DNA from: a virus
Strand: one strand, 5' to 3'
IMG/VR virus record: IMGVR_UViG_3300045988_000096
Location: 1-5,756 of that record
DNA length: 5,756 nt
Shown here: positions 1-5,756 of the stretch, in pieces
How the letters are laid out: each line of letters starts with the position of its first letter
How positions within the stretch are numbered: the stretch's first letter is position 1
Notes under the pieces: model-generated
What the model was told of the DNA's origin: nothing
The model's input: only the letters and a program-made list of their open reading frames with translations
Database searches by the model: none
Made by a program: the position numbers and the translations under genes

Positions 1-119
1 CCTCCTTTCTTTCCATATTTGTGTGCAAATAGAAGGTTTCTGACAGTGGAGGCAGAGCATTCCTCCTTTACATTTCGCTGCCAGTCCCCTCATGTCAATT
101 TTACCAAAAAAAAAAAAAC
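1..119. repeat. Direct terminal repeat, copy 1 (identical to 5638..5756); assembly overlap of a circular genome
   Basis: Base-by-base comparison shows 1..119 equals 5638..5756, including the A13 tract (106..118 and 5743..5755). Position 120 continues with unique sequence. Implied unit length is 5,637 nt, within the Microviridae size range. Confidence 0.95.
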
Positions 120-146
120 GCAAGGTCAACTTTCGTCAACCTCACG
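106..146 (-). terminator. Rho-independent terminator on the minus-strand transcript, downstream of the 52-aa ORF
   Basis: The minus-strand RNA reads CGUGAGGUUGAC-GAAA-GUUGACCUUGCG (119..146). This is a 12-bp stem (8 Watson-Crick plus 4 G-U pairs) with a GNRA (GAAA) tetraloop, followed directly by U13 (plus-strand A13, 106..118). The wobble pairs become C-A mismatches on the opposite strand, so the structure works only for minus-sense transcripts. It starts 10 nt after the stop codon at 156..158. Confidence 0.8.
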
Positions 147-155
147 ATTTTTGGT

Positions 156-314
156 TTATCTTTCGTATTCTTTGAGTTTTTCACAGATTGCGTTTGTCCA
201 TTCGTCATCCATTTTGTACTCTTCTTTTATCTGCTCTCGGTCTTCGCTTCTCCATCCACCGTCGTATAGTGCTGCTGCGCAGTTTTCAACTTCTTCTTCA
301 TAGTAGCTTTTCAT
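156..314 (-). CDS. Hypothetical small acidic protein, 52 aa: MKSYYEEEVENCAAALYDGGWRSEDREQIKEEYKMDDEWTNAICEKLKEYER
   Basis: Hand translation, ATG at 314..312 and TAA at 158..156. AGGAGG (comp 326..321) lies 6 nt upstream of the ATG. A consensus promoter lies upstream and an intrinsic terminator 10 nt downstream. By hand count, 16 D/E versus 8 K/R. No family recognised. Not in the ORF track (below 60 aa). Confidence 0.7.
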   Translation of the reverse strand: MKSYYEEEVENCAAALYDGGWRSEDREQIKEEYKMDDEWTNAICEKLKEYER

Positions 315-333
315 GGTGTGCCTCCTAGTTTGT

Positions 334-384
334 GGTGTGCTCTTCTTACACCTTTATTATACACCTAAAACATGCACTTGTCAA
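334..384 (-). promoter_or_regulatory. Promoter P1 (perfect sigma-70/sigma-A consensus) plus downstream palindromic operator candidate
   Basis: Minus strand reads TTGACA (comp 384..379), a 17-nt spacer, then TATAAT (comp 361..356). Three nt later comes the inverted repeat GGTGT-N9-ACACC (334..352), then 7 nt, AGGAGG, 6 nt and the ATG of the 52-aa ORF. Confidence 0.8.
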
Positions 385-413
385 GCAGAACTTTGTCTAG
401 ATGGCCGTCAGGT

Positions 414-447
414 CGGCGCTGGTGCGCCGGATGAAAATGACGGCGCA
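414..447 (-). other. GC-rich three-segment element able to form two mutually exclusive hairpins
   Basis: On the plus strand, CGGCGC (414..419) pairs with GCGCCG (424..429) across a 4-nt loop. Alternatively, TGCGCCG (423..429) pairs with CGGCGCA (441..447) across an 11-nt loop. The middle segment is shared. No U-tract follows on either strand. Confidence 0.45.
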
Positions 448-479
448 GCTTTCCGTGACTACGTCGTCCTGTCCTTTAT

Positions 480-500
480 TGGCCGTTCTCCCCCCGGCCA
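480..500 (-). other. Hairpin immediately downstream of the Rep stop codon
   Basis: TGGCCG (480..485) pairs with CGGCCA (495..500). The stem is 6 bp with a 9-nt loop, 1 nt from the Rep TAA (502..504). No U-run follows on the minus strand, so it is not a canonical intrinsic terminator. Confidence 0.4.
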
Positions 501-501
501 C

Positions 502-1680
502 TTATATTTCATCTCTTCTTAATTTGGAGAACTTTTCTTGATTTTTCGTGTCGATGTTGTTATAATGTTCTTGCAGACTATAGCCGTGTTGTGCGAGCTG
601 AGCAAATAGAGCGTCGTTGGCGATTTTCCGTCGCTTTCTCTTTATTTCCTTGAGTTCGTCCGACTCGGCTTTTATTATTAGAGCTTCGTAATCCTTTTCT
701 GTTTCGGCGTTTAGTGGTTCGCTGTTGCTGTGTTCAAGATCAAAGAGCTTGTCGAAGTATGCTGGCGGTTTACATCTTTTTCCTTTACTCAGCTGGATAC
801 TGTCTTTTTGATATATCTCGTCTTTATGGTCTTCGTAGTATCTCCAGCCGATTGATGGTTTTGTGCTGATTCTGCTATCTTCTTCCTCGATACACATATC
901 GAGGAATTTTTCTTTTGCTTCGCCATATGCTTTCTTGGAACAGTATGCTGCTGTATATGCCATGTCGTTCCATTCTGCCACTCCGATAATTACGAAGCCT
1001 TTTCCCCATATCTGGTTGAGCCATGCACAGGTGTAGTATACTCTGCCTTTCTGTTTTTTATACACCTTCAGTTCTTTCGGGTCTATGTATAAGCTGTACA
1101 CGATCGCGTGATAATGCGGTCTGTGCGTTTTCGTGCCGTATTCTCCTCCAGCGTAGTACATGAGTTTATTTTTCATGCCTACTTTTTCATCATAGACTTG
1201 GTACATTCTTTCGTGATACTCTGTCCATCTTCTCAGCCTTTTCCAGAATGCCGTTAAATCATCATAGTCTAGTGTTAGGTTCGTTGTATACTCTCCGCTT
1301 GGAGCTTTCAGCACTCCGTTTTTGTCGATGCCTTTGCCTCTTTCGATGTTGATTGGAACGTGCTTGTTGTCGTACGTCAATGTTAAGAACCAAGCCTGAT
1401 CGTGATACGGTAATTCCATCTCCATTCGATTTGCCCAGCTCTTTCGTCTATCCAAAATGCATCCTTGGCAATGTTTACAAGGACATATTACAATTTCGCC
1501 GGTTTTGATTTTTGCTTTGACTTCTCGTTCTCTTCTGCGCTGCGTTGTTATGTCGTCAGCTGGCGCTGTGTTCGGCTTGTTCGACATTCCGTATTTGATA
1601 TAGCGTTCTAGTGAACTAAAAAAATCGTCTCCGTTTTTCTTCGCTCCGAAGATTCTAATGTTGGGTCTGCCACATGGCAT
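502..1680 (-). CDS. Replication initiation protein VP4 (HUH rolling-circle endonuclease, phiX174 gpA family), 392 aa
   Basis: Motif I is FLTLTY (aa 98-103). The HUH motif is RPHYHAIVY (H189-Y190-H191, nt 1108..1116). The two-tyrosine motif is AYTAAYCSKK (Y242, Y246), matching the YxxxY spacing of phiX174 A protein. The N-terminal MPCGRP and the cysteine cluster CPCKHCQGC (aa 66-74) are typical of Microviridae VP4. GGAGGTG lies 8 nt upstream of the ATG at 1680. Confidence 0.93.
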   Translation of the reverse strand: MPCGRPNIRIFGAKKNGDDFFSSLERYIKYGMSNKPNTAPADDITTQRRREREVKAKIKTGEIVICPCKHCQGCILDRRKSWANRMEMELPYHDQAWFLTLTYDNKHVPINIERGKGIDKNGVLKAPSGEYTTNLTLDYDDLTAFWKRLRRWTEYHERMYQVYDEKVGMKNKLMYYAGGEYGTKTHRPHYHAIVYSLYIDPKELKVYKKQKGRVYYTCAWLNQIWGKGFVIIGVAEWNDMAYTAAYCSKKAYGEAKEKFLDMCIEEEDSRISTKPSIGWRYYEDHKDEIYQKDSIQLSKGKRCKPPAYFDKLFDLEHSNSEPLNAETEKDYEALIIKAESDELKEIKRKRRKIANDALFAQLAQHGYSLQEHYNNIDTKNQEKFSKLRRDEI

Positions 1681-1703
1681 GGATGTTTCACCTCCCGGGG
1701 TCG

Positions 1704-1746
1704 CACTGGGGGGAAATGTCCCTCTTGATTACATTTCCCCCCAGTG
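1704..1746. other. Perfect 16-bp inverted repeat with an 11-nt loop in the RHH-Rep intergenic region
   Basis: CACTGGGGGGAAATGT (1704..1719) is the exact reverse complement of ACATTTCCCCCCAGTG (1731..1746). The loop is 1720..1730. The element ends 24 nt upstream of the Rep ATG on the minus strand. No T-run follows on either strand. Confidence 0.85.
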
Positions 1747-1829
1747 ACACAAAAATGCGTCTGACGGTTACTGTCGGGCCTGTATTTTTGTTGCATTCAG
1801 TTTGCACGGCGAAGCCGTCAAACGGCTCC

Positions 1830-2006
1830 TTAACGCACTTCTTTCCCTGTTATTTTTTCGCTGTAGTATACTATCGCGTCCCGGATAATGTCGGATGTGT
1901 TTGCTTTCCAGTTCCGGTTTGTATACTCTTTCGTCAGGTTTTCCAGTGCATCGTTTTCCGCTTTGGTCAAGTTGATATTAAATCTCTTTGTGATCTGCGT
2001 TCTCAT
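1830..2006 (-). CDS. Ribbon-helix-helix (CopG/Arc/MetJ-like) DNA-binding protein, 58 aa: MRTQITKRFNINLTKAENDALENLTKEYTNRNWKANTSDIIRDAIVYYSEKITGKEVR
   Basis: Hand translation, ATG 2006..2004 and TAA 1832..1830, with AGGAGG (comp 2017..2012) 5 nt upstream. The sequence pattern fits an RHH fold: an N-terminal beta strand (KRFNINL), helix A (TKAENDALENLTKEY), and a helix B cap of the x-S/T-x-S-D/E-hydrophobic-I-R-D/E-A-I type (NTSDIIRDAIVYY). Not in the ORF track (below 60 aa). Confidence 0.7.
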   Translation of the reverse strand: MRTQITKRFNINLTKAENDALENLTKEYTNRNWKANTSDIIRDAIVYYSEKITGKEVR

Positions 2007-2024
2007 GCTAGCCTCCTATAGCTA

Positions 2025-2075
2025 AGTGTGTGATTGGTACACTCATAATATACACCTCTTTTCTCCACTTGTCAA
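2025..2075 (-). promoter_or_regulatory. Promoter P2 (near consensus) plus palindromic operator candidate; paralogous to P1
   Basis: Minus strand reads TTGACA (comp 2075..2070), a 17-nt spacer, then TATATT (comp 2052..2047). Three nt later comes AGTGT-N9-ACACT (2025..2043), then 7 nt, AGGAGG, 5 nt and the ATG of the RHH gene. Spacing from -35 to SD is identical to P1. Confidence 0.75.
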
Positions 2076-2080
2076 CTATT

Positions 2081-3019
2081 TTATGGTAACATTGGAAGAC
2101 CCGGTAGTAAGCTGAACTGGCCTTTTGCTCCAAGGCCTGCGTCAAGTCGCCCTTCGTTTTTGAACTCGTGACCTTTGGTTTCTTGCTCCTGTTGCGTGGT
2201 GCTGTCCATCCGCTCGCCCAGCTGGCCCACGGTTTTTGCGCTGCTGCTTACGGTTTGCTGTTGCATCTGCTCGAGGTGCTCAGCTGTCCAGTAGTCAGAA
2301 CTTTGTTTCGCGTTGTTGATGGCCGTTTGAAAGTTCTGCACGATCTGTGCCGTGTTGTTGCCGTAGTCATACATTGCCTGCATGGTCGCGTTTTTGGCTG
2401 CTGGTGCTGCCAGAGCCTGAGCGTGTGCGAAGGTCTGACCGCCACCGAGGCTTCCATAGCCTCCCGATGGCGTCTGTGCCCCATAGCCGTTATAGGCTGC
2501 TAAGATAGGATTCAATCCCGCTGCTTTGAGGTCTGCCACGCCTCTCTGATAGCTGGTATTTGCCATTCGCTCTTGCCAGGCTCTTTGTGCTTTGGCCTCA
2601 GCTGAGTTATACCGCATTGCGCTGGTTTGGCTCGCTGCGCTCATTGCGTTGGATGCTAGAGCGTTTCCCATGTTGAGAAGATTTCCCATCATCCATGTAC
2701 CGGTCTGCAAGTCGTTGGCAGTTTTTGCGTTTGCTGTGTTGAAGTCTGCTGCGTCTTGAGCGTTGTTGCCTGTCGGAGTTCCGAGTGCTGTTGCCAGCAG
2801 ATTTCCCAGTGCGCTTGTGTTGCCGGTCTGGACGCTCCCACCTGCGCTTGTAGTGTTTTGTGCGGTGCTTCCCATGGTTGTACCGCTTTGGATTGTGTTT
2901 TGCATTGTGCCCTGCTGTTTTGCGCTGGACGTGCTCCCTTTTAAGCTGCTGTATATGCTGTATAATGTGTTTGCTAGAGTTATGCCGCCTTTGATAATAC
3001 CCATTAGCCCGATTGCCAT
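2081..3019 (-). CDS. Minor capsid / DNA pilot protein VP2, 312 aa
   Basis: Sits immediately downstream of VP1. The N-terminus is hydrophobic ([20 protein letters not shown]). The central region is long and rich in Q/T/S/A/G/N. It carries the motif I recall as characteristic of gokushovirus VP2, [27 protein letters not shown] overlaps the VP1 stop, 7 nt before the ATG at 3019. Confidence 0.85.
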
Positions 3020-3031
3020 TGCGCTTCCTCC

Positions 3032-4654
3032 TTAGATGGTATCAAGGCCTGGGATGCTGTAGATCGGCATTGCCCTTGTCCACGTCTGGTCGAAGTAGAA
3101 GTTGCAGATAAATTGGTGGTTGTTCTGGCTTTCTACCGCGATCGTTCTATCAATGTTCTGTCTTCCCTCTTTAATCCATTCGCTGGAGAGAGTCGGCAGA
3201 CTCGTGTATTTATCGGCATAGTGCCAAGCATCCAGTGTCTGCGCGTAGGTGCTGCGCATTTCGCCTGTGATCATGTTTGTCCGGTATCGGTAGTCTGCCC
3301 AAGCTTCCTGATAGCCGAATACTTCTTCGTCCTTTGCGTTGCCCTGTGCGTAGATTTCCTGATTGAGCACCGCTTGCTCACCGAGGTTTGCAAGCATCGG
3401 GTCATAGTAGGAAAAGCGTGTGCTGCGTGTCCACAGCCGGGACAGGCCCTGCTGATAGCTGTGATCAACTCGCACCGCTGCCAGACCGATGATGAAACCA
3501 TGTTCCGTTGCGCTGTATGTTGCCATGTTCCGGCTCATCGTGGTCATGGAGAATGCTGCAGTGTTGCCCTGTGGACTCGTCGCGTCTGTGCTGGACGTCT
3601 GAATGACCTGATTGATGTTGATAGGCAGTCTGTAGCCGCCGATGTATTCCGAGCGGTCAAGTCGTGCATCCGGACTCGTTACACCCCAAGCACCCTGTAA
3701 GATTTCCTTGTACCGTGTGCCGGTGCGTGCATCTCTTTCCATAATGTGTTGCACAGCGATGGCCTGTCTCAGTTCGTTGATGGTTGCGGCTGTTACGTTG
3801 CTCATGTCTGCGCCAAGTACTGGGTGTAAGCTTTCGTCTCTTTCGGTGTATACCTGTGCTGGTTTCGCTCCGCTTACATCGTCTCCGTTTACGCCTGCAA
3901 AGTAAGGGATGAAGTTTGTCATTATGCTTAGATCTGTGCTGTCCAGTTTTTCTTTGAGGCTTGCTGTGCCGTATCCATAAATCGGTGCCGCTCCTGTCAT
4001 CGGCAGCGTCACAGCCTCGCCTTTCTGAGGACTCGGCAGGCAGCTTGTGAAGTAGTCCTTGTACTTACAGACTTTGAGCGGTAGCCCTCCGGCTTCGGCG
4101 TCGGTCAGTGCTGTTCCTGCGTTGCTTCCTGCGGTCGTGGCGTCCGTCTTGCTCATCGTGACAGGCTGCTGTAAATTTTCGTCTCGAAACCATTCGTTCC
4201 AGATTTTGACATATGCCCGGAAAGGCAGGCTGTTCACCTGAAGGTTTTCTATGCCGGTCGGAATGCCGAAATAATCCGCCAGTGTGCCTACGTTCCAGCC
4301 GCCAGTTGGTGCGGTTGTTTTCGGAGTTGTGTATTCTACTTTTTCGGCCCAGAAGGTCGAGTCGTTCTGACCCATGAGGTTTTCGAAATGCTCCCACAGC
4401 AGCCGCGACGGTACGAAGAAGAAGTAAAAGTCACAGTAACAGTTATCCATGACAGGATACAGCGGTGTGCTCATGCGCATAAGTGCATTGAGGTCAATCT
4501 TTGCTGTGTCTGCCGGTAATACCTCGTCACAGTAGATCGGGACTAGATCGCCTTCGTTTATCGTGGTTAGCAGGCTATAATCTCGTTTGAATCTTGCGCG
4601 CGGCACGTTTGCATGAGGTACTTGGCTGTAATGCTGTTCAGCGTTTCGGTTCAT
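3032..4654 (-). CDS. Major capsid protein VP1 (Microviridae F-like jelly-roll capsid), 540 aa
   Basis: Size is typical for the family. The N-terminus HYSQVPHANVPRARFKRDYSLLTTINEGDLVPIYCDEVLPADT matches the conserved family pattern (RS-F-...-TT-...-G-L-PI...E-LPGDT). The start overlaps the VP3 stop in ATGA (4651..4654). Confidence 0.95.
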   Translation of the reverse strand: MNRNAEQHYSQVPHANVPRARFKRDYSLLTTINEGDLVPIYCDEVLPADTAKIDLNALMRMSTPLYPVMDNCYCDFYFFFVPSRLLWEHFENLMGQNDSTFWAEKVEYTTPKTTAPTGGWNVGTLADYFGIPTGIENLQVNSLPFRAYVKIWNEWFRDENLQQPVTMSKTDATTAGSNAGTALTDAEAGGLPLKVCKYKDYFTSCLPSPQKGEAVTLPMTGAAPIYGYGTASLKEKLDSTDLSIMTNFIPYFAGVNGDDVSGAKPAQVYTERDESLHPVLGADMSNVTAATINELRQAIAVQHIMERDARTGTRYKEILQGAWGVTSPDARLDRSEYIGGYRLPININQVIQTSSTDATSPQGNTAAFSMTTMSRNMATYSATEHGFIIGLAAVRVDHSYQQGLSRLWTRSTRFSYYDPMLANLGEQAVLNQEIYAQGNAKDEEVFGYQEAWADYRYRTNMITGEMRSTYAQTLDAWHYADKYTSLPTLSSEWIKEGRQNIDRTIAVESQNNHQFICNFYFDQTWTRAMPIYSIPGLDTI

Positions 4655-5148
4655 TCCTTATTTTCTCCTTTCTGCACAACTTTTTCAGCTGCAGCATCGA
4701 CCTTCTCTTGTGCATCCTGCTGAGTTTTGATGCCCATTTTGTTGAGCCACTCTTTTTCACCGGCTGTTGCTATCCAGTTTTCGAAGTTCATACCGAAAGC
4801 CTGACGCACACTGAGTGGAAGCTTATTGAACTGCTCCCGTTTCTCGTTCATCATGTTCATGTACTCGGTGTAGGTCTGTGGCAGCTTGCTGGTGTCGATG
4901 TACCAGCCCGGTTTTGCCAGTACGCTTTCGTCGCCGGCAGCGTACCGGCTCAGAATTGCCATGACGTCGCATTCGTCCTTATAGCTTTGGATTTTCTCGT
5001 AGGTGTCCACTTCGCCGACCTTTTCCAGGTACGGCTGCCCTCGGTCGTCATACCGCTCTTTGTACTCCGGTTCAAACCGGTTGCCCGGTTCGTTCGGCAG
5101 TGCCAGCGGTTTTTCGTCCTCGTAGGGCTTAAAGATTCTTACTCCCAT
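4651..5148 (-). CDS. Internal scaffolding protein VP3, 165 aa
   Basis: Sits directly upstream of VP1 and is translationally coupled to it. The segment IQSYKDECDVMAILSRY and the later FNKLPLSVRQAFGMNFENW resemble conserved blocks of gokushovirus/chlamydiamicrovirus VP3 scaffold proteins. AAGGAG lies 7 nt upstream of the ATG at 5148. Confidence 0.85.
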   Translation of the reverse strand: MGVRIFKPYEDEKPLALPNEPGNRFEPEYKERYDDRGQPYLEKVGEVDTYEKIQSYKDECDVMAILSRYAAGDESVLAKPGWYIDTSKLPQTYTEYMNMMNEKREQFNKLPLSVRQAFGMNFENWIATAGEKEWLNKMGIKTQQDAQEKVDAAAEKVVQKGENKE

Positions 5149-5392
5149 TGAGCTGCTCCTTTTTCATGAGTTCGATGTTGTACATGAGCATCGGCAGCGC
5201 TAGCGGCTTGATCTGGCCGCTTTCGTTGTCGTACTTGCCCAGAAGATAGACTCGCTTATCCTCGCAGTCGGCTTTCTCCATCTCCTGTGCCATCCATCTG
5301 AAGGTGCGGTTGGCCACCTTTTCATTGACCACCATCAGATTGCCGAAGATGCCAGACAGTTCGTCTTTTACTGCGTATACCTGAAATTCCAT
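5129..5392 (-). CDS. Small conserved Microviridae non-structural protein (VP5/ORF5-like), 87 aa; function uncertain
   Basis: AAGGAG lies 7 nt upstream of the ATG at 5392. The ORF overlaps the VP3 start by 20 nt. The sequence (EFQVYAVKDELSGIFGNLMVVNEKVANRTF...YLLGKYDNESGQI) resembles the small protein I recall upstream of VP3 in gokushoviruses. That family assignment is from memory and unverified. Confidence 0.65.
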   Translation of the reverse strand: MEFQVYAVKDELSGIFGNLMVVNEKVANRTFRWMAQEMEKADCEDKRVYLLGKYDNESGQIKPLALPMLMYNIELMKKEQLNGSKNL

Positions 5393-5404
5393 GATGATTC
5401 TCCT

Positions 5405-5524
5405 TTATAAACGGATGCCGCCGCGCGACGGCTTCGGATTGACGTTGATTTTTTTCGTCTTCTTTGCGGTATTGGTGAAGACTTTCTTATCCTTTTTCGG
5501 ATTGACCGGCATTCGATGTGCCAT
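5405..5524 (-). CDS. Small basic DNA-binding/packaging peptide (phiX174 J / gokushovirus VP8-like), 39 aa: MAHRMPVNPKKDKKVFTNTAKKTKKINVNPKPSRGGIRL
   Basis: Hand translation, ATG 5524..5522 and TAA 5407..5405. AAGGAGGAG lies upstream, and the ATG is 1 nt after the stop of the preceding ORF. The peptide is highly basic (K/R rich). The F-x-x-T-A core and C-terminal RGGIRL ending match what I recall from small Microviridae DNA-binding proteins. Not in the ORF track. Confidence 0.75.
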   Translation of the reverse strand: MAHRMPVNPKKDKKVFTNTAKKTKKINVNPKPSRGGIRL

Positions 5525-5525
5525 A

Positions 5526-5630
5526 TTACTCCTCCTTATCCAGTCCCATGGCGTGGTAAATCTTGTCCAGCATCGCAAGGATCTTCCTCAGCTGATTAAA
5601 AATCCCGCGGATGTCTTTCACAGTAATCAT
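5526..5630 (-). CDS. Hypothetical 34-aa peptide: MITVKDIRGIFNQLRKILAMLDKIYHAMGLDKEE
   Basis: Hand translation, ATG 5630..5628 and TAA 5528..5526, with AGGAGG (comp 5643..5638) 7 nt upstream. It is coupled to the next ORF (TAAtATG). It is predicted to be mostly one amphipathic helix, with no transmembrane segment and no recognised family. Confidence 0.5.
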   Translation of the reverse strand: MITVKDIRGIFNQLRKILAMLDKIYHAMGLDKEE

Positions 5631-5637
5631 GGCAACA

Positions 5638-5756
5638 CCTCCTTTCTTTCCATATTTGTGTGCAAATAGAAGGTTTCTGACAGTGGAGGCAGAGCATTCC
5701 TCCTTTACATTTCGCTGCCAGTCCCCTCATGTCAATTTTACCAAAAAAAAAAAAAC
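5638..5756. repeat. Direct terminal repeat, copy 2 (identical to 1..119)
   Basis: See copy 1. It contains the SD of the 34-aa ORF, candidate promoter P3 and the A13 tract. Confidence 0.95.
5685..5735 (-). promoter_or_regulatory. Candidate promoter P3 for the structural gene block (weak -10), with downstream palindrome; a second copy lies at 48..98
   Basis: Minus strand reads TTGACA (comp 5735..5730), a 17-nt spacer, then AAATGT (comp 5712..5707; only the A2 and T6 consensus positions match). Three nt later comes GGAGG-N9-CCTCC (5685..5703). This geometry matches P1 and P2. The T13 and AAAA just upstream of the -35 could act as an UP-like A/T tract. It is the only TTGACA between the terminator and the first structural-block ORF. 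Confidence 0.35.

Follow-up and report, generated by a model that had tools for sequence, protein, structure and literature searches.

Conserved start-site dyad ahead of a putative ribbon-helix-helix gene and rep in gut gokushovirus-like microviruses: a candidate autorepressed replication operon

Introduction

In the textbook view, microviruses rely on constitutive promoters and have no regulator of their own, and to our knowledge the classical members of the family encode no transcription factor. The genome described here raises the question of whether some microviruses nevertheless control their replication gene. It is taken from IMG/VR virus record IMGVR_UViG_3300045988_000096 (positions 1 to 5,756; this whole stretch of 5,756 nt is referred to as the window), and it contains two similar promoter cassettes, P1 and P2, each with a GTGT-N9-ACAC inverted repeat over the expected transcription start. 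P1 heads a 52-aa accessory ORF; P2 heads the gene of a 58-aa putative ribbon-helix-helix (RHH) protein, behind which lies the gene of the HUH replication initiator Rep. An earlier note on this DNA proposed that one regulator, most simply the RHH protein, co-controls both cassettes. The comparative analysis presented here makes this proposal plausible for P2, whose dyad is conserved, but not for P1, whose dyad is not. Literature searches turned up no description of an RHH regulator, or of any repressor or other regulator, in Microviridae; the class of RHH-autoregulated rep operons is itself already known.

Results

Genome organization

The first and last 119 bases of the window are identical, which gives a circular genome of 5,637 bp. 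The genome is that of a circular gokushovirus-like microvirus: all genes recognisable with Pfam and PHROGs lie on the minus strand (Table 1), and the closest matches in GenBank (75-78% identity) are faecal gokushovirus-like genomes of pig and human origin. The 52-aa ORF has no family match in Pfam or PHROGs, and an Rfam scan of the window gave zero matches at E <= 1. The strong AGGAGG ribosome-binding sites and the consensus promoters suggest a Firmicutes-type host, probably one of the Clostridia.

Table 1. Features of the window, with their main sequence elements
Feature	Position	Strand	Elements or basis
P1 cassette, heads the 52-aa ORF	312..384	-	TTGACA(384..379)-17-TATAAT(361..356)-AAA-GGTGT(352..348)-N9-ACACC(338..334)-N7-AGGAGG(326..321)-N6-ATG(314..312); GTGTA on the expected start site, 351..347; promoter scan, core conserved in 29 relatives
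P2 cassette, heads the RHH gene	2004..2075	-	TTGACA(2075..2070)-17-TATATT(2052..2047)-ATG-AGTGT(2043..2039)-N9-ACACT(2029..2025)-N7-AGGAGG(2017..2012)-N5-ATG(2006..2004); invariant ATG at 2046..2044; promoter scan, conservation in relatives
52-aa accessory ORF behind P1	156..314	-	ORF list
58-aa putative RHH protein	1830..2006	-	strand KRFNINLT, helix SDIIRDAI
Rep (VP4), HUH replication initiator, second gene of the P2 operon	502..1680	-	PF23343, phrog_942
DNA hairpin between RHH and Rep genes, candidate Rep origin	1704..1752	-	covariation, conserved
VP1 major capsid protein	4654..3032	-	Pfam/PHROGs
VP2 pilot protein	3019..2081	-	Pfam/PHROGs
VP3 scaffold protein		-	Pfam/PHROGs
ORF5/VP5		-	Pfam/PHROGs
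Small basic J-like protein		-	Pfam/PHROGs
Predicted late promoter with preceding terminator	98..146	-	terminator hairpin 146..119, T-run 118..107, extended -10 TGGTAAAAT 106..98; conserved; duplicate copy at 5735..5756 and beyond
Late-leader two-tier hairpin	40..84	-	outer stem CTGGCAG 84..78 / CTGTCAG 46..40; inner stem GGAGG 66..62 / CCTCC 52..48

P2, the RHH gene and the rep gene follow one another in this order in the window and in all relatives, and a promoter and terminator scan of the coding strand between the RHH and rep genes found no promoter-like or terminator-like site. The arrangement is that of a cop-rep operon, in which a small repressor-type gene lies directly 5' of a co-oriented HUH rep gene and both share one promoter. 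Between the two genes lies a conserved DNA hairpin with a TTGTGTCA flank, a stem of 12-16 bp and the invariant loop ATCAAGAG; compensatory changes occur in 14 of its 16 pairs and wobble in none. We also considered an antisense RNA over the start of rep, comparable to RNAII of pMV158, and dropped it: plus-strand promoter-like and terminator-like sites occur only in the subclade of the window.

Two homologous sigmaA-type promoters

On the minus strand, P1 and P2 read exactly as the earlier note gave them, with identical element spacing from the -35 to the Shine-Dalgarno (SD) sequence and 41 of 64 positions identical in an ungapped comparison, as it had stated. Both have sigma-70/sigmaA hexamers (TTGACA/TATAAT, 16-18 bp apart) with a 17-bp spacer, matching the consensus at 12/12 positions in P1 and 11/12 in P2; they are the two best promoter matches of the window, where no other site exceeds 10/12. 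Outside the three hexamers (-35, -10 and SD) 24 of 46 positions match (binomial p 1.8e-4), which is the top value among all 5,637 genome offsets, with a chance tail that reaches 22. This excess of similarity within a single genome is modest, and the comparative evidence is stronger, since relatives with RHH and Rep proteins of just 40-50% identity also carry both cassettes. P1 and P2 are thus real, homologous, near-consensus sigmaA-type promoters, as had been proposed, with transcription starts predicted about 7 nt after each -10.

Distribution among relatives

The 58-aa ORF used as query retrieved 28 IMG/VR microviruses, further relatives were added by DNA-pattern scans, and a scan with a Rep profile gave 80 loci; removal of duplicates left a working set of 51 distinct genomes. 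The clade comes from pig, human and lemur faeces and consists of widespread gut gokushovirus-like phages. In each of the 28 relatives from the homology search, a P2 cassette precedes the RHH gene. Likewise, all genomes with a Rep of at least 45% identity have an RHH-like ORF with a P2 cassette 5' of it, including three genomes picked by no DNA pattern. Neither the RHH gene nor the cassettes occur in any of the 28 more distant microviruses of the scan (Rep <= 36% identity) or in two GenBank outgroups. Their co-occurrence is that of a single clade, i.e. one evolutionary event. Early pattern matches in large phage contigs were set aside as near chance level by a rough estimate.

Conservation of the P2 dyad

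Among 36 distinct P2 sequences, the stretch AGGTG-TATAWT-ATG-RGTGTA-nnAATCnn-ACACY is mostly invariant or nearly so. Numbered along this stretch, the dyad arms are invariant at G16, T17, G18, T19 and A20 on the left and at A29, C30 and C32 on the right; within the 9-nt spacer, A23, A24 and C26 of the AATC are invariant and T25 is conserved in at least 90%. The surrounding coding DNA cannot be aligned between clades, and the RHH proteins are down to 29-40% identity. With +1 counted as the 7th base after the -10, RGTGT-N9-ACACY spans roughly -3 to +16 of P2. The palindrome therefore lies over the expected start site and is kept in every relative examined, which bears out the expectation that it would be conserved wherever the promoter is.

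The dyad has a gap of 9 bp between GTGT and ACAC (13 bp centre to centre) and forms a 17-bp element overlapping the start site. It does not have the Arc/CopG-type geometry of two inverted 4-bp boxes 5 bp apart. At its outer pair, 16 sequences have A-T, 10 have G-C and another 10 have G-T, and A/C does not occur; this covariation was matched by only 1 of 500 shuffles. A dif-like reading of TGTATATTATG in P2 was rejected: the XerD arm is unmatched beyond TTATG, and P1 does not have the sequence.

The putative RHH protein

The 58-aa ORF and its homologs match no families other than RHH ones, in every case short of the curated cut-off: CcdA (E = 0.007), RHH_1 (CopG) in 4 of 20 members (best E = 6e-4), aCcr1 in 11 of 20 and ORF56 in one. 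A homologue with 92% identity has been named an Arc/MetJ-type RHH regulator by JGI. In the alignment R8, N10, L13, T14, S38 and R42 are invariant and N12 is kept in at least 90%. The N-terminal K-R-x-N-x-N-L-T segment has the pattern of an RHH strand, with the polar R8, N10 and N12 kept and variable hydrophobic residues at the x positions; the helix listed in Table 1 is the second conserved RHH helix. This strand presumably resembles QFNLRW of Arc and HFNFRM of Mnt, and if it is aligned with the Arc strand, R8, N10 and N12 would fall on one face; we take both points as leads only. In one relative (L054) N12 is replaced by F and the dyad arms are unchanged.

Structure prediction was not informative. 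An AlphaFold2 monomer built from a 24-sequence alignment has helices at 15-30 and 37-53, a low-confidence pLDDT of 66 and an N-terminus modelled as helix, and a Foldseek search of the PDB with this low-confidence model returned only noise at E > 2. A PDB profile search gave a sole match at E = 0.33, and a tblastn search of plasmids with the RHH protein gave no match. The 58-aa ORF behind P2 is a plausible RHH protein, as had been proposed, and its gene is followed by rep.

P1 has a conserved core and a transplanted leader

Of the 51 genomes, 29 have a P1-type promoter; none was detected in the other 22 by a GTGTATAWT search, which decayed copies may escape. The conserved part is TGC-TTGACA-AGTGTAT-nnTTT-AGGTG-TATAAT-AAA-GGTGTA-GAAAGGA, and in most relatives P1 consists of three 13-nt-phased GTGTA units, i.e. 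tandem 13-mers A(A/G)GTGTAT(A/G)(A/T)T(A/T)(A/T) with the third at +1, leading directly into the SD. The P1 of the window has two GTGTA copies and a GTGCA after the -35. The conservation of the dyad seen for P2 fails here: most of the 29 P1-type relatives run GGTGTA straight into the SD, the right arm ACACC at N9 is confined to the window and its closest relatives (L009, L010, L050, L052), and in L009 the left arm is mutated.

The origin of the P1 dyad is indicated by its leader, which is identical at 36 of 44 positions (82%) to the P2 leaders of two relatives, L021 and L022, and at 28 of 44 (64%) to the P2 leader of the window itself; the core is identical to other P1 cores at 31 of 32 positions. 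The P1 of the window is thus a P1 core with a recently transplanted P2-type leader. The identical spacing of the two cassettes, which had been read as a sign of joint control, reflects this transplant and is no evidence of joint design. The small genes behind P1 are unrelated from one genome to the next, and two genomes have only a remnant or the terminator there. In the best explanation, P1 is a portable strong promoter serving the variable slot for accessory genes that lies between rep and the single terminator. Binding of the RHH protein to the dyad, should it occur, would in this genome damp the 52-aa gene as well; such co-control of P1 is at best a local, recent consequence of the leader transplant, not a conserved design.

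The GTGTA boxes are common in unrelated promoters

The GTGTA boxes shared by P1 and P2 might also suggest a shared operator. The pattern TTGACA-N13-GGTGTATAWT-A-NN-RGTGTA has 25 occurrences in bacterial genome contigs, 5' of unrelated sequences; most of these contigs are Clostridia MAGs, in agreement with a Firmicutes-type host. We then examined 78 distinct unrelated phage promoters, chosen as TTGACA-N14-GTG-TATAWT with GTGTA at most 12 nt downstream. After the -10, GTGTA lies at offset 4 in 23 of them, at offset 2 in 17 and at offset 0 in 9, and offset 4, the modal value, is that of the cassettes themselves. Of 163 unselected near-consensus promoters of the same loci, 8 have GTGTA, always at offset 4, and 8 have GTG at -15..-13; the preferred bases around the start are T(-1) R(+1) T(+2) A(+3). 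None of the proteins downstream of the unrelated pattern-bearing promoters matches the RHH profile; by eye, the genes there include Hsp20-like, HicA-like and tRNA-synthetase-like ones.

GTGTA on the start site is thus a generic start-site context in Firmicutes-type promoters, and it is weak evidence for a shared operator. A clade-specific RHH operator array of 13-bp-phased GTGTA boxes, which we had considered, was downgraded for the same reason, and the left arm of the P2 dyad may itself be ordinary start-site sequence. Particular to the clade are the GGTG directly next to the -10, in place of the usual TRTGn, the GTGTA behind the -35 of P1, and the ATG, the AATC and the inverted ACACY of P2.

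The late promoter and its leader

A third cassette, P3, had been put forward as a candidate late promoter with a palindrome of its own. Its geometry, TTGACA(98..93)-17-AAATGT-AAA-GGAGG-N9-CCTCC, is indeed present in the window, but it is not a conserved promoter: relatives have TTAACA, TTAACG, TTGAAA or TCGACA at the -35 and AAAACG or AAAAAG at the -10, and the stretch is absent altogether from most genomes. Common to all 51 genomes are instead the terminator hairpin, the T-run and the extended -10 G[GAC]TAAAAT/GATAGAAT (TGGTAAAAT in the window), in most genomes with an SD within about 10 nt after it. The late role was therefore misassigned to P3; the predicted late promoter is the T-run with the extended -10.

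The P3 palindrome can be placed as well. The subclade of the window has an insert of about 100 nt whose core folds, in per-sequence folds, as a two-tier hairpin. Its outer stem varies among CCAGCACC/GGTGCTGG, CCGGCGCC/GGCGCCGG, CCAGAG/CTCTGG, CCGGCG/CGCCGG and the CTGGCAG/CTGTCAG of the window, and its inner stem is GGAG(G)/(C)CTCC. The arms of the P3 palindrome are the apical stem of this larger, covarying leader hairpin.

Discussion

Based on the comparative evidence presented here, we consider autorepression of P2 by the RHH protein through the start-site dyad to be the best explanation, at about even confidence. The presence of the P2 dyad in every relative makes autoregulation similar to that of copG-repB in pMV158 the best reading of the locus. 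In this scheme P2 would give one transcript with the RHH gene, the structured hairpin (candidate origin) and rep; RHH dimers would bind the dyad as candidate operator and block RNA polymerase, which would exert negative feedback on the dosage of both RHH and Rep. Several observations speak against it: the RHH family matches are sub-threshold, the 9-bp gap between the boxes is unusual beside the 5 bp of Arc and CopG, the absence of A/C from the outer pair points more to strand pairing, the left arm may be generic start-site sequence, N12 is replaced in L054 under unchanged arms, and the co-occurrence of gene and cassettes counts as one event.

Instead of being a protein site, the dyad may work at the level of a single strand, as a hairpin in RNA or in viral ssDNA. 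Such a hairpin could form near the 5' end of the RHH-Rep message and serve in its stabilisation or processing, or it could be part of late transcripts that read through. The pattern of arm covariation speaks for such pairing: G-T (G-U) intermediates are common and the mirror A/C is absent, an asymmetry expected of paired strands more than of a symmetric protein site, and the third pair has changed from T-A to T-G in two sequences from two lineages. Two P1 variants (L012, L023) also retain GTGT and ACAC tracts at other spacings, and the late leader of the same genome has a clearly structured hairpin. However, the stems have just 4-6 bp and the loops 7-9 nt, and the predicted RNA energies are weak, at -2.3 kcal/mol (z = -1.2) for P2 and -3.7 kcal/mol (z = -2.45) for P1, with no clear gain over shuffles and short of a stable 5' stem-loop; an RNA stability hairpin thus explains the dyads poorly. 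Moreover, a start 7 nt past the -10 falls within the left arm, so that the P2 RNA would be missing part of it, and the invariance of the AATC spacer and of the arm sequences goes beyond structural need. The neighbouring true DNA hairpin behaves differently, with many double changes and zero wobbles. We regard a strand-level function as unlikely.

P1 and P2 could also be merely two duplicated strong promoters, similar through common descent and selection for strength and for a preferred start-site context, with an incidental inverted repeat. Start-site GTGTA and GTG beside the -10 each have a frequency of about 5% among unrelated near-consensus promoters, most relatives do without the P1 dyad, and the within-genome similarity outside the hexamers is modest, all of which would be expected in this case. 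What makes it improbable is the region from +6 to +16 of P2 (AATC and ACAC) and the discriminator ATG, which are near-invariant at 40-50% protein identity and are unneeded for promoter function.

That same ATG suggests another possibility, namely that P2 holds a short uORF which couples or gates translation of RHH and Rep in transcripts reading through from the late promoter, so that part of the conservation of the dyad would stem from this element. In P2 the spacer has an SD-like AAAGAGGTG at its end, and the invariant ATG lies 6 nt further on, opening a uORF of 9-13 codons that ends 1-14 nt before the RHH start or overlaps it. The ATG is present in 51 of 51 relatives, the spacers are purine-rich with a GGTG end, in 49 of 51 genomes the frame ends close to the RHH ATG, and the terminator scan found no terminator between VP2 and P2. 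The constraint on the codons is nucleotide-wise and not peptide-wise, however: GTA, ATC and CAC show no synonymous variation, and in codons 4 and 6 positions 1-2 change but the third base does not. P1 retains AGGTG but has AAA in place of the ATG, and the whole idea depends on presumed read-through. We find this reading improbable too; should the uORF be used, what counts is that read-through transcripts are translated there and not the peptide made.

A combination of these functions, which we consider quite improbable, would make P2 an RHH-repressed promoter on DNA and a translation unit in read-through late transcripts. The same 70 nt, with the spacer SD, the invariant ATG and the 9-13 codon uORF, would then couple RHH and Rep synthesis to late transcription. 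The RHH protein of some relatives ends in an SSB-like acidic tip, EEEDLPF, which could in this combination bring host replication proteins to the adjacent origin hairpin. If this were true, a small protein would join transcription control and replication in a microvirus.

Finally, it is very unlikely that the GGTGTA repeats are read by RNA polymerase itself, as a sigma-dependent promoter-proximal pause element, or by Rep, as iterons: P1 does consist of three tandem 13-mers, the third of them at +1, and the cassettes do flank the RHH-origin-Rep module, but the downstream unit has no T at the last position of its -10-like hexamer, and we know of no iteron binding by a microvirus Rep.

Autorepression of P2 by the RHH protein has its closest parallel in pMV158, where CopG is co-transcribed with repB from Pcr and represses Pcr, thereby setting the dose of Rep (PMC2724298). 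The two loci share a strong promoter, a small RHH gene (45 aa for CopG, 58 aa here), an HUH rep gene and a hairpin origin adjoining the operon (a candidate origin here), and Pfam RHH_1, the CopG family, is among the weak matches of the 58-aa ORF. They differ in that the replicon here is a virus, an antisense RNA was not found, and the similarity to CopG is below the family threshold. The operators differ as well. That of CopG, 13 bp long with its centre at the -35, has TGCA boxes separated by 5 bp, and about 50 bp are contacted; the P2 dyad has arms of 4-5 bp, 9 bp apart, and is centred near +7.

Phage-encoded RHH repressors whose operators overlap promoters are known from the immI region of phage P22, with Arc and Mnt. 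The Arc operator has TAGA boxes between the -35 and the -10, spaced 5 bp apart as are the 4-bp boxes of CopG (PMC2724298). The Arc family is not among the Pfam matches of the RHH ORF at E <= 0.05-0.1, and the Arc/Mnt phages differ in being tailed dsDNA phages with a lysogeny circuit. The box arrays of the cassettes, three in direct orientation in P1 (-> -> ->) and two direct and one inverted in P2 (-> -> <-), are also reminiscent of Omega (ParB) of pSM19035. Omega, a single RHH protein, controls several promoters through short repeats. These repeats are non-palindromic and are recognised in direct or inverted orientation (PMC9499535). Omega heptads are, however, contiguous with a 7-bp period and at least 2-4 of them are needed, whereas the microvirus boxes have a period of 13 bp and two of them coincide with generic promoter features. 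Phages of the phiX174 type belong to the same virus family and have several constitutive sigma-70 promoters with read-through transcripts; the present clade differs from them in having an RHH gene and a conserved dyad in the promoter of that gene.

A clade of gut gokushovirus-like phages thus has a plasmid-style module composed of a strong promoter, a small putative RHH gene, an origin-like hairpin and rep. The comparative set assembled here provides ready-made natural variants with which the module can be tested. If the RHH protein represses P2, these viruses would control the dosage of their replicase as rolling-circle plasmids control their copy number, which bears on microvirus persistence and carrier states, on the plasmid-virus continuum of HUH replicons, and on the design of minimal regulated ssDNA vectors.

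The intergenic hairpin as a candidate replication origin

Between the genes for RHH, a putative ribbon-helix-helix protein, and Rep, the HUH replication initiator, all 51 related microvirus genomes carry a long hairpin with a conserved flank (TTGTGTCA), a stem of 12-16 bp and an invariant loop, (A/G)TCAAGAG. Compensatory double changes are found in 14 of the 16 stem pairs, and one-sided (wobble) changes in none of them (0/16). This pattern points to a structure at the DNA level and makes the hairpin a candidate origin for Rep. Reps of the pC194 type have CTTGATA as their nick core (PMC10378824), and the complement of the loop, CTCTTGAT, matches it at six of seven positions; however, this CTTGATA-like sequence of the hairpin sits on the non-coding strand.

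Features of the window and their coordinates
Feature	Position	Strand	Location
Terminator (146..119), then T-run + TGGTAAAAT	98..146; copy 5735..5756 and beyond	minus	
Two-tier covarying hairpin	40..84	minus	late leader
GC-rich stretch	385..501	minus	between Rep stop and P1
Short ORF	2007..2046	minus	invariant ATG directly 3' of P2 -10
Long hairpin	1704..1752	minus	between RHH stop and Rep start

Promoters, leaders and the accessory slot

In P2, the promoter of the RHH-Rep operon, an SD-like AAAGAGGTG within the promoter spacer precedes the invariant ATG of a short ORF of 9-13 codons (MSVPITHLAIGG in the window). In 49 of 51 genomes this ORF ends 1-14 nt before the RHH ATG or overlaps it, and its variation is of the nucleotide type rather than the peptide type. 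A set of 163 near-consensus promoters, unselected and drawn from unrelated loci (L136-L258) in phage and bacterial contigs of Firmicutes type, favours T(-1) R(+1) T(+2) A(+3) in the start region, with TRTGn extended -10s in 60% of the set. GTGTA follows the -10 at an offset of exactly 4 in eight of these promoters and lies at other offsets in none.

The sole strong terminator of the window runs directly into the T-run and extended -10 of the late promoter, and this junction, kept in 51/51 relatives, stands at the head of the late (structural) operon. Among the relatives, the two-tier hairpin of the late leader is restricted to the subclade of the window. A 48-kb ENA contig (L093) joins a related microvirus to non-viral genes (FtsX/ABC transporter, HTH, DUF5720, ALP_N) within such an element (L093 6150..6215), whose outer stem there lacks its left half; the join reflects either integration at this point or a chimeric assembly.

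Between Rep and the terminator lies a slot (window 156..314) that holds differing small ORFs, or just remnants, across genomes, and the 52-aa protein encoded there in the window has no family match. In one genome (L022) the -10 of P1, the promoter of the 52-aa gene, is fused to that gene's 3' end; in another (L038) P1 leads directly into the terminator. The GC-rich stretch contains several short hairpins (e.g. GGCCG..CGGCC and CGGCGC..GCGCCG), and relatives keep the motif GCCGACC(G/T)GACGGCC immediately upstream of P1. This stretch could be a complementary-strand origin.

Exchange of modules between lineages

The C-terminal tip of bacterial SSB is acidic, and the EEEDLPF, EEDELPF or DDDDLPY ends of eight of the 47 distinct RHH homologues (L001-L007, L057, L061) resemble it; the RHH protein of the window lacks such an end. 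Rep of one relative (L063) is 99% identical to that of the window, whereas its RHH, compared through a near-identical homologue (L052 type, alignment A1), is only 43% identical. Conversely, another relative (L001) shares 89% identity in RHH and 47% in Rep. Lineages thus exchange modules, and the conserved P2 cassette and the RHH-Rep hairpin are likely the junctions of this swapping.
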